Sequence record: LR746311 | Length of the DNA: 64,000 nucleotides | Source: Shigella phage vB_SsoM_113 | Strand: one strand, 5' to 3' | Shown: in pieces, positions 61,330 to 62,662 of the stretch | Layout of the letters: the number at the start of each line of letters is the position of its first letter | Position numbering within the stretch: the first letter of the stretch is position 1 | The notes under the pieces: model-generated | Databases searched by the model: none | What the model saw: the letters and a program-made list of their open reading frames with translations, nothing else | Told to the model about the DNA's origin: nothing | Made by a program: the position numbers and the translations under genes

Positions 61330-61784
61330 TGGAATTTAAAGACTTTTCAACGGGTCTTTATGTAGCAGCTAAGTTTTCAGAATTAACACTTGATGCGCTG
61401 GAAGAACTCCAGCGCTCTTTACGTGTTCCTAATCCAGTTCCTAGAGAAAAAATTCATTCGACCATATGTTATTCAAGAGTAAATGTTCCGTATGTTCCAT
61501 CAAGCGGAAGTTTTGAAGTAGCTTCTTCTGGACATTTAGAAGTATGGAAAACACAAGATGGATCGACTCTTGTACTTGTGCTAGATTCTGAATATCTGCG
61601 CTGTCGACACATGTATGCGCGGGCACTAGGTGCTACACATGATTTTGATGATTACACACCGCATATAACATTGTCTTATAATGTTGGGCCCTTATCATTT
61701 AGCGGTGATGTACAAATTCCGGTCGTATTAGATCGTGAATACAAAGAGCCTCTTAAACTCGATTGGGCAGATGATTTAAAATAA
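61329..61784 (+). CDS. 57B: gp57B-like protein
   Basis: 151 aa; position after 57A as in T4. Confidence 0.75.
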
Positions 61785-61840
61785 TTTCACAAAGTTGTTT
61801 ACACGTTGATGAGGTAGTGATACTATTACCTCATCAAAAA
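61781..61840 (+). promoter_or_regulatory. early promoter cassette A (copy 1 of 3) with embedded inverted repeat
   Basis: gatttaaaataatttcaca...GTTGTTTAC...gTGaTACTAT; 11-bp perfect inverted repeat TTGATGAGGTA / TACCTCATCAA around the -10 region. Confidence 0.55.
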
Positions 61841-61856
61841 TAATTAGGAAAATAAA

Positions 61857-62114
61857 ATGAAAACTTTCAAAGAGTTTGCTACAAAAACTACTATCACTGA
61901 ATCTTCCCACGGTATGGAAGTAAAGCTTGGAATGGCTTTAGCTGAAGCTGAGCGTCTTTTCTCTCGTATTAAAGAACTTGCTGCTGCAGTCGATCCTTCG
62001 TCTTTTAAAGGAGATCAAACTAAAGTTAAAGCGCTTTTAGCATTATGCTCCGATGCAGGAGAAATTGCTAAAAATGGTTCTAAGATGAAGAAACGATTAG
62101 AAGATTTAAAATAA
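61857..62114 (+). CDS. internal-protein-like small protein A (85 aa) with capsid targeting sequence
   Basis: N-terminus MKTFKEFATKTTITE resembles the T4 internal protein targeting sequence (MKTYQEFIAE-type, cut by gp21 after Glu); sits in the variable IP position after 57B. Confidence 0.6.
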   Translation: MKTFKEFATKTTITESSHGMEVKLGMALAEAERLFSRIKELAAAVDPSSFKGDQTKVKALLALCSDAGEIAKNGSKMKKRLEDLK

Positions 62115-62165
62115 TTTCATAGAGTTGTTTACTTCTGGGTAGTAGTGTGATACTATTACCCTATC
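62106..62165 (+). promoter_or_regulatory. early promoter cassette B (copy 2 of 3)
   Basis: gatttaaaataatttcatag-GTTGTTTAC-ttctgggtagtagtgTGaTACTATtaccc; a 44-bp core identical to cassette C. Confidence 0.55.
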
Positions 62166-62190
62166 AAAACAAAACCAAATGGAAAATAAA

Positions 62191-62415
62191 ATGAAATCAT
62201 TTAAAGAATTTATCGCTGAAGCTAAAAGACATGAAGATGAACTACCAATTGTTACGAAAACTTTTGATGGTACATTAAGTGATTTTAAAAAAATTCCTAG
62301 CGATAAACTTTCTAAGTTAACTGGCTCTATTAGTGAAAAGGATGGTAAAGTCACGTTTTCTGCTCGTGGCACTGCTAATCTTAAAAAGCTTTTGAAAGCT
62401 GCTGGAGCGGAATAA
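62191..62415 (+). CDS. internal-protein-like small protein B (74 aa) with capsid targeting sequence
   Basis: N-terminus MKSFKEFIAEAKRHE closely resembles the T4 internal protein targeting sequence; the track ORF starts 4 codons earlier (62179). Confidence 0.6.
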   Translation: MKSFKEFIAEAKRHEDELPIVTKTFDGTLSDFKKIPSDKLSKLTGSISEKDGKVTFSARGTANLKKLLKAAGAE

Positions 62416-62457
62416 GTTGTTTACTTCTGGGTAGTAGTGTGATACTATTACCCTATC
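62403..62457 (+). promoter_or_regulatory. early promoter cassette C (copy 3 of 3)
   Basis: GTTGTTTACttctgggtagtagtgtgatactattaccctatcaa, identical to cassette B over about 44 bp. Confidence 0.55.
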
Positions 62458-62476
62458 AACTACTGAGGAGAATAAA

Positions 62477-62662
62477 ATGAAACGTTGTGAATTAATTCGA
62501 AATGTTGCTATTGCAATTTCTGCTTCTGCTTTTAGTTTTTCAATGTTTGTTGGATTTATATGTGGATTATTAACTACAGCAGAAAATGTGTTTTCACTTG
62601 TAGTAGCATTTTTAATTGGTTTAATCGCTATCGTTATGGATAAAATTTCTAAAGATGAATAG
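62477..62662 (+). CDS. small hydrophobic protein with two predicted transmembrane segments (61 aa)
   Basis: AIAISASAFSFSMFVGFICGLL and FSLVVAFLIGLIAIVM hydrophobic stretches; RBS GAGGAG; driven by cassette C. Confidence 0.5.
   Translation: MKRCELIRNVAIAISASAFSFSMFVGFICGLLTTAENVFSLVVAFLIGLIAIVMDKISKDE

Follow-up and report, generated by a model that had tools for sequence, protein, structure and literature searches.

The right end of the 64,000-nt stretch of Shigella phage vB_SsoM_113 analysed here (record LR746311; hereafter the window) carries three consecutive small open reading frames (ORFs), each preceded by a copy of a repeated unit. Taking identification, packaging and cassette logic together, we consider it very probable that this region is an ipI-type internal-protein (IP) locus of a Tequatrovirus with two cassettes, ip5 and a second gene that we call ORF-B. 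This reading is based on sequence, synteny, family membership, the leader motif of both proteins, the presence of the gp21 and gp22 genes and a mosaic whose junctions fall at the units. An earlier inspection of the letters, made with no database searches (the original prediction), had described the region as an array of promoters in front of packaged and injected proteins.

The window is part of a Tequatrovirus genome. A megablast search of 50,697 phage records returned 857 records matching it, nearly all of them Tequatrovirus, with phage GiZh as the best match (97.7 % DNA identity). The gene order is that of T4 reversed, with the synteny gp3, gp1, 57A, 57B, IP cassettes, tRNA.4 to tRNA.2 and tRNA genes; the cassettes therefore sit exactly at the position of ipI in T4. 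This places both leader-bearing ORFs between 57B and tRNA.4, in one of the two IP loci of T-even phages, the other being located between e and denV.

Both proteins belong to known internal-protein families

By its sequence, the first ORF is Ip5, the named internal protein of phages T2 and RB70. The protein is 99 % identical to T2 Ip5 and 92 % to RB70 Ip5 (UniRef name Q38378), it matches phrog_3499 ('internal head protein') at an E value of 1e-49, and its counterpart in GiZh is annotated as ipV with the comment 'replaces ipI'. The second ORF, ORF-B, matches phrog_8765 ('internal virion protein') at 7.5e-26. Members of its family, at 76-95 % identity, come from 107 phage records; most of these are Klebsiella T4-like phages and Dhakavirus, and a few are Tequatrovirus. 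The members that have been named are annotated as 'internal head/virion protein'. An identical ORF-B protein is present on three other contigs. The comparison with known IP families that the original prediction had proposed thus confirms the class of both ORFs, and for the same reason neither is a new protein: the candidate new effectors turn out to be the named Ip5 and a member of a family already annotated as internal head protein.

The N-termini of the first and second ORFs read MKTFKEFATKTTITE and MKSFKEFIAEAKRHE, as quoted in the original prediction. Relatives begin at the MK(T/S) position, so the start of ORF-B is most likely at 62191 (MKSFKEF...) rather than at the upstream ATG at 62179. 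Two names were considered for ORF-B and rejected. It is not the 'ipVI' of GiZh, as the bodies of the two proteins are unrelated. Neither is it the 'Ip9' of phage IME08, where the match is to an unannotated ORF located just upstream of the annotated Ip9, which belongs to a different 90-aa family. ORF-B may represent an unnumbered IP family, and this is the residual novelty of the locus.

The leaders predict packaging and cleavage by gp21

In T4, residues 4 and 7 of IPIII determine targeting to the capsid and residues 8 and 10 determine processing, with gp21 cutting after the motif L/I-X-E (PMC9026906). The leader of T4 IPI is MKTFKEFTSTTTPVSTITE, followed by ATLT, and the solved structure of IPI* (PDB 2jub) starts at residue 20, directly after TITE. 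Both ORFs of the window conform to the leader pattern MK(T/S)(Y/F)xEF and have the gp21 motif at the end of the leader. The T4-like capsid-targeting leaders with a cut after Glu that had been proposed for the first two ORFs are thus supported by alignment to IPI for one and to IPII/IPIII for the other.

The Ip5 N-terminus (MKTFKEF) has aromatic residues at targeting positions 4 and 7. Its leader aligns with that of T4 IPI through TITE, with I13-T14-E15 opposite I17-T18-E19 of IPI, and we therefore predict a cut after Glu15 (ITE/S, where the slash marks the cut). The start of ORF-B resembles instead that of T4 IPII and IPIII (MKSFKEFIAE/A versus MKTYQEFIAE/A). It has F4, F7, I8 and E10 at the four functionally tested positions 4, 7, 8 and 10, and its gp21 motif, I8-A9-E10, is as in IPII/IPIII. 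The predicted mature proteins have 70 amino acids and an isoelectric point (pI) of 9.2 for Ip5, and 64 amino acids and a pI of 9.6 for ORF-B; both are small and basic, like IPI* and IPII*.

We surveyed 46 loci, 36 of them drawn from IMG/VR through the 57B protein. The survey contains 72 leader-bearing ORFs, whose bodies form 20 unrelated families. All of them have Met1, Lys2 and Phe7, residue 6 is Glu in 70 of the 72 ORFs and residue 10 is Glu in 63. It is conceivable that the leader likeness is vestigial and that the products of the ORFs are ordinary early proteins of the cytoplasm, never packaged, and the early-type promoters described below would suit such proteins, whereas head assembly is a late event. 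We regard this explanation as very improbable. T4 ipI, ipII and ipIII are preceded by the same early-promoter units and are nevertheless packaged (PMC3012670, PMC9026906), and the conservation of the leader in front of unrelated bodies indicates selection on the leader itself.

The bodies of the mature proteins

Beyond the leader the likeness to T4 IPI ends, as the original prediction had suggested: BLASTP alignments to IPI stop at residue 22 for Ip5 and at residue 7 for ORF-B. The AlphaFold model of Ip5 is a two-helix hairpin of moderate confidence (predicted local distance difference test, pLDDT, of 71). That of ORF-B, also of moderate confidence (pLDDT 78), has a beta-alpha-alpha-beta-beta-alpha topology, a KH-like arrangement but without the GXXG loop expected of a type I KH domain between helices 1 and 2. 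Foldseek searches with both models returned nothing at E <= 0.001, and 2jub was absent from the top structural matches. A search of PDB sequences gave no significant match for Ip5.

For ORF-B the same PDB search gave nothing significant apart from a weak resemblance of residues 18-52 to the N-terminal half of ubiquitin, seen only via polyubiquitin repeats (E value of 9.5e-5 in PDB and 5e-4 in a representative library). We discount this match as a repeat artefact, in which weak matches are summed over the ubiquitin repeats; the AlphaFold model is not a beta-grasp fold, and the similarity is probably due to chance. A profile search of 1.84 billion representatives found, beyond the family of ORF-B itself, only repetitive giant proteins and a polyubiquitin.

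Each cassette is preceded by a promoter-plus-hairpin unit

The three unit copies that had been proposed in front of three small ORFs are located at 61793-61837, 62123-62167 and 62415-62459. Copies 2 and 3 are 100 % identical over 45 nt, while copy 1 shares 71 % identity with both. The pattern GTTGTTTAC-N15-TGATACTATTACC has three exact occurrences in the window, all at the locus, and one further occurrence with two mismatches at 3552; none was found in 100 dinucleotide-preserving shuffles.

A promoter scan identifies every unit as a T4 early-type promoter with a -35 element GTTTAC, a 17-nt spacer and an extended -10 element TGATACTAT. In unit 1 the scan spans 61798-61826, with TG ahead of the -10 element. 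Every unit also folds as a hairpin, not mentioned in the original prediction, with the -10 element within the loop and the 3' arm. The stem has 14 base pairs in unit 1 (free energy of -20.4 kcal/mol, z score of -5.1) and 11 base pairs in units 2 and 3. We considered and rejected a role of these hairpins as terminators: no intrinsic terminator was detectable between 61785 and 62476, and the hairpins are followed by A-rich sequence instead of a U-tract.

The unit was originally described as including the last codons of the preceding gene, DLK-stop, in each copy. This is correct for units 1 and 2, where the segment corresponds to the 3' ends of 57B (DDLK) and ip5 (EDLK), but not for unit 3, as ORF-B ends in AAGAE-stop. 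The DLK-stop segment together with ATTTCA is common only to units 1 and 2 (61769-61802 and 62099-62132, 91 % identical) and overlaps the AT-rich stretch upstream of the -35 element. This stretch is where T4 early promoters have their upstream element. A further repeat, GGA(A/G)AATAAAATGAAA, at 61847, 62181 and 62467, takes in the ribosome-binding site together with the ATG and the first codons.

Unit 1 is 94-97 % identical to the units upstream of T4 ipI and of ip5 in GiZh and phage Lutter, and it carries a 'promoter' annotation in Lutter. Unit 2 is chimeric: its left flank is as found downstream of ip5, its core is identical to unit 3, and its right flank is as found upstream of ORF-B in relatives. 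Unit 3 has 100 % identical counterparts between ORF-B and tRNA.4 of phage EP01 and of the contigs L009, L010 and L011; in T4, its homologue separates ipI from tRNA.4. Unit 3 is the promoter that precedes tRNA.4, tRNA.3 and tRNA.2, and probably also the tRNA cluster.

Two units of the same type are found elsewhere in the window, at 3552-3588 (GTTGTTTAC...TGATAGTAT) and at 3947-3975 (GTTTAC...TGATATTAT). Next to each, on its 3' side, come GGAGAATAAAATG and a small ORF, at 3612-3944 for the first and listed at 4000-4377 for the second. The unit type is therefore not exclusive to the IP locus.

Cassette content varies among relatives, with junctions at the units

The hypervariability that the original prediction had noted for the IP locus of T-even phages is evident from the conserved frame of 57B and tRNA.4 and the changing content between them, with 0-4 cassettes at this site in related phages. 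T4 has ipI alone and Lutter has ip5 alone. GiZh and JLBYU24 carry ip5 and ip6, the contigs L009 and L010 carry ip5, ip6 and ORF-B, EP01 (OM135583) carries ipI, a 90-aa IP, a 102-aa IP and ORF-B, and IME08 (NC_014260) carries a 69-aa IP, an ORF-B homologue and Ip9. In the phages compared (T4, GiZh, Lutter, EP01, IME08, F48, L009, L010 and L011) a unit is present at every cassette junction, and homologous units flank different ORFs. The second locus of T4 shows the same organisation, with ipIII and ipII flanked by the same unit type.

Two of these loci are incompletely annotated. The four consecutive IP cassettes of EP01 (427-1725), the largest array among the loci compared, are all annotated as 'hypothetical protein'. 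In IME08, two leader-bearing ORFs between 57B and Ip9 are unannotated, at 1712-1921 and 2001-2225; the latter is the ORF-B homologue, and the 69-aa ORF begins with MKTYNEFLTEAMES, its start overlapping the stop of 57B.

In the window itself, comparison with L009, L010 and L011 gives 100 % identity over ORF-B and unit 3, but 96-98 % over ip5 and the genes on its left side. A non-consensus spacer is common to units 2 and 3 in this window only; relatives have a different spacer in every unit. None of the handful of relatives inspected combines ip5 with ORF-B and a pair of identical flanking units, the nearest arrangements being ip5, ip6 and ORF-B in L009/L010 and the short contig L011, in which ORF-B stands behind an ip5-type unit. 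A chimeric unit 2 and spacers of this kind would be expected after recombination or gene conversion through the units. We hypothesize that a recent gain, loss or swap of a cassette left the two identical units on either side of ORF-B.

Alternatively, the units may be independently maintained early promoters that resemble each other through selection for promoter strength and have no role in recombination. The conserved parts are indeed promoter elements (GTTTAC, TGATACTAT and the AT-rich region upstream), and the similar units at 3552 and 3947 stand ahead of unrelated small ORFs. Such selection would hardly account for the identity of units 2 and 3 across a 15-nt spacer without consensus when the spacers of relatives differ unit by unit. 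It is also at odds with the stepwise shifts in nucleotide identity to other phages at the units, and with the different ORFs that homologous units enclose in different phages. We consider this explanation improbable. Cassette swapping through a shared segment, as suggested in the original prediction, agrees with the mosaic junctions at the units; the idea was already published in 1994, and the mechanism itself is inferred from the mosaic.

Proposed course of events and role of the proteins

By analogy with T4, we propose a course of packaging, cleavage, injection, defence inhibition and recombination for the two cassettes. In each cassette, a T4 early promoter overlapped by a hairpin is followed by a conserved ribosome-binding site and then by an ORF with a capsid-targeting start of 10-19 residues. 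As for T4 IPI-III, the protein would dock through its leader on the scaffolding core (gp22) of the prohead, and gp21 would then cut after Glu15 in Ip5 and after Glu10 in ORF-B (IAE/A). The small basic mature proteins would remain in the head and be injected with the DNA. The units would serve as short homology patches through which cassettes are gained, lost or swapped between co-infecting T-even phages.

Once in the host, the most likely function of the mature proteins would be to neutralise DNA-targeting defences of particular strains. Internal proteins are the first line of counter-defence of the phage because they arrive together with the DNA. For Ip5 and ORF-B an anti-defence role is suggested by analogy only, and taken by itself we give this step slightly less than an even chance. 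That T4 IPI* blocks GmrSD, as stated in the original prediction, agrees with published data in which GmrSD enzymes are blocked by Ip1, Ip2 and Ip3, a different one by each (Silas et al. 2025, PMC12373910).

Several observations weigh against our reading of the locus. In sequence and structure searches neither body is significantly like IPI* or any solved fold. Internal L/I-x-E motifs are present twice in Ip5 (L28-A29-E30 and I38-K39-E40, both invariant in the Ip5 family) and once in ORF-B (I47-S48-E49), while T4 IPI* and IPII* have none; further cleavage of either protein inside the head, to smaller peptides, is therefore conceivable. No data on the presence of Ip5 or ORF-B in virions or on their injection were found in the searchable literature. 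The lack of a U-tract after the hairpins means that these are not classical terminators. The experiment against GmrSD envisaged in the original prediction has in part already been published for ip4-10, a set that may or may not include the ORF-B family, and these showed no reproducible inhibition of the GmrSD groups (Silas et al. 2025, PMC12373910). The same study found T2 to be restricted by the GmrSD of ECOR21 and ECOR17. As T2 carries Ip5, this protein at least does not counter those enzymes.

Alternatively, both proteins may be components of the packaged core that serve in structure or DNA condensation and are not defence inhibitors. They could neutralise charge, aid head morphogenesis or be broken down by gp21 to small peptides like gp22, gp67 and gp68. 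The basic pI of both mature proteins (9.2-9.6), the invariance of the internal motifs in the Ip5 family and the negative result for ip4-10 are consistent with such a role; moreover, T4 IPIII has a part in head morphogenesis, and internal proteins make contact with DNA phosphates through their lysines (PMC9026906, PMC3012670). A structural role leaves unexplained, however, why 20 unrelated bodies follow one leader and why cassettes are present or absent between near-identical phages. Furthermore, all three studied T4 internal proteins are specific restriction inhibitors (PMC12373910), and the locus adjoins Acb1, another counter-defence gene. We therefore judge a purely structural role to be unlikely.

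Within the anti-defence reading, ORF-B allows a more specific and doubtful proposal. Its family may lie outside the numbered and tested Ip1-10, with a small KH-like alpha/beta body that could inhibit some DNA-targeting defence of Escherichia or Klebsiella yet to be named, for example a further type IV restriction subtype or a system other than GmrSD. If so, the recent arrival of a 100 % identical copy in this phage would be an adaptive event related to host range.

Genomic surroundings of the locus

The features of the locus and the relevant genes of the window are listed in Table 1. The left border is the 57B homologue, which is Acb1, an anti-CBASS phosphodiesterase, as identified by Pfam PF23474 (E value of 2.6e-60), by a match to phrog_755 and by a position equivalent to that of T4 57B. 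Its 3' codons (DDLK-stop) are part of unit 1. As this counter-defence gene is located directly upstream of the cassettes, it forms one small counter-defence neighbourhood with the injected-protein cassettes.

The right border, the third ORF (ORF 3), is the conserved tRNA.4 membrane protein. It matches phrog_1692 at 8e-35, identical neighbours match PF26870 (Phage_T4_Y07D), and the GiZh annotation agrees. ORF 3 has no capsid-targeting leader and is for this reason not an internal protein. Further downstream, a GIY-YIG (seg-like) homing endonuclease ORF begins directly after tRNA-Gly. In T4, segB is found between tRNA-Ile and tRNA-Arg, so the tRNA cluster is interrupted at a different point than in T4. 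JLBYU24 has a 'segD-like' endonuclease annotated at the equivalent place. The genes for gp23 and gp20 are likewise encoded in the window alongside those for gp21 and gp22.

Table 1. Features of the internal-protein locus and related genes in the window
Feature	Position	Strand	Remarks
gp22, scaffolding core protein	29879-30688	-	PF25623 T4_CASP, E 5.5e-90; binds capsid-targeting leaders
gp21, prohead protease	30719-31357	-	PF03420 Peptidase_S77, E 1.5e-111; expected leader-removing enzyme
gp3	upstream of gp1, last 4 kb of window	+	
gp1, dNMP (deoxynucleoside monophosphate) kinase	60362-61087	+	
57A	61087-61329	+	
57B homologue, Acb1	61329-61784	+	left border of IP locus
Unit 1	61769-61837	+	AT-rich 57B 3' end; -35 at 61797-61802; TGATACTAT at 61818-61826; hairpin 61806-61837
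ip5 (Ip5, ORF 1), 85 aa (amino acids)	61857-62114	+	leader MKTFKEFATKTTITE; predicted gp21 cut after Glu15
Unit 2	62099-62167	+	ip5 3' end (EDLK-stop); -35 at 62127; TGATACTAT at 62148-62156; hairpin 62137-62161
ORF-B (ORF 2), second internal-protein gene, 74 aa	62191-62415	+	leader MKSFKEFIAE; predicted cut after Glu10; alternative ATG 62179
Unit 3	62415-62459	+	-35 at 62419; TGATACTAT at 62440-62448; hairpin 62429-62453
tRNA.4 homologue (ORF 3), 61 aa	62477-62662	+	predicted membrane protein; right border of locus
tRNA.3 and tRNA.2 homologues	3' of ORF 3	+	
tRNA-Gln, tRNA-Leu, tRNA-Gly	63432-63671	+	
GIY-YIG (seg-like) homing endonuclease ORF	63719-64000	+	begins directly after tRNA-Gly

Comparison with known systems

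One closely related system is T4 IPI, whose mature form IPI* (2jub) is an injected inhibitor of the type IV GmrSD enzyme of E. coli CT596. The two proteins of the window share with it the locus, the kind of leader (for Ip5 through TITE), the small size and the basic charge. They differ in having no likeness to it beyond the leader: IPI has two beta-sheets flanked by helices, whereas a helical hairpin is predicted for Ip5 and a beta-alpha-alpha-beta-beta-alpha arrangement for ORF-B. T4 IPII and IPIII (Ip2 and Ip3, inhibitors of the ECOR21 and ECOR17 GmrSD) agree with ORF-B in the leader at positions 4, 7, 8 and 10 and with the locus in the type of unit. These genes, however, lie at the e to denV locus, and their bodies are unrelated to both ORF-B and Ip5. 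Internal proteins have been described as diverse defence proteins with only the capsid-targeting sequence in common (Rao and Black 2010, PMC3012670) and more than 30 IP variants were known by 2010 (Arbiol et al. 2010, PMC2839356).

The units recall the PeSL (promoter-early stem-loop) cassettes of RB49/phi1 and other T4-like phages, in which a promoter and a stem-loop flank small non-essential ORFs in hyperplastic regions; when copies recombine, ORFs are inserted, deleted or replaced (Arbiol et al. 2010; Comeau et al. 2014). The authors regard the IP-locus units as analogues of PeSLs and not as homologues. The IP units are built on the T4 early promoter and not on a sigma-70 consensus, their stem-loops are weaker, AT-rich and without polyG/polyC (PMC2839356), and neither a U-tract nor a terminator is detectable at the units of this window. 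Arbiol et al. (2010, PMC2839356) noted that such IP units may underlie the plasticity of the IP locus.

The strongest parallel is with the IP loci of Repoila, Tetart, Bouet and Krisch (1994, EMBO J 13:4181). As summarised in later papers, that work described two polymorphic IP loci with about ten IP ORFs that have a conserved leader (PMC2839356, PMC3012670), flanked by a T4 early promoter of about 70 bp with an overlapping stem-loop, and proposed recombinational shuffling (PMC2839356). The locus of the window agrees with this description in its position between 57B and tRNA.4, in the leader and in the units on both sides of each ORF, and its first ORF is the Ip5 of that study. Nothing differs in kind; only the particular pairing of ip5 and ORF-B, with its two identical flanking units, went unseen among the relatives inspected. 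For T-even phages, the locus and its leader, the logic of its cassettes and the model of recombination have all been known since 1994, and both proteins are annotated in public records; the window therefore adds an example and not a concept. Ip5 and the ORF-B family are nonetheless real members of the class, and they are reasonable candidates for functional screens.

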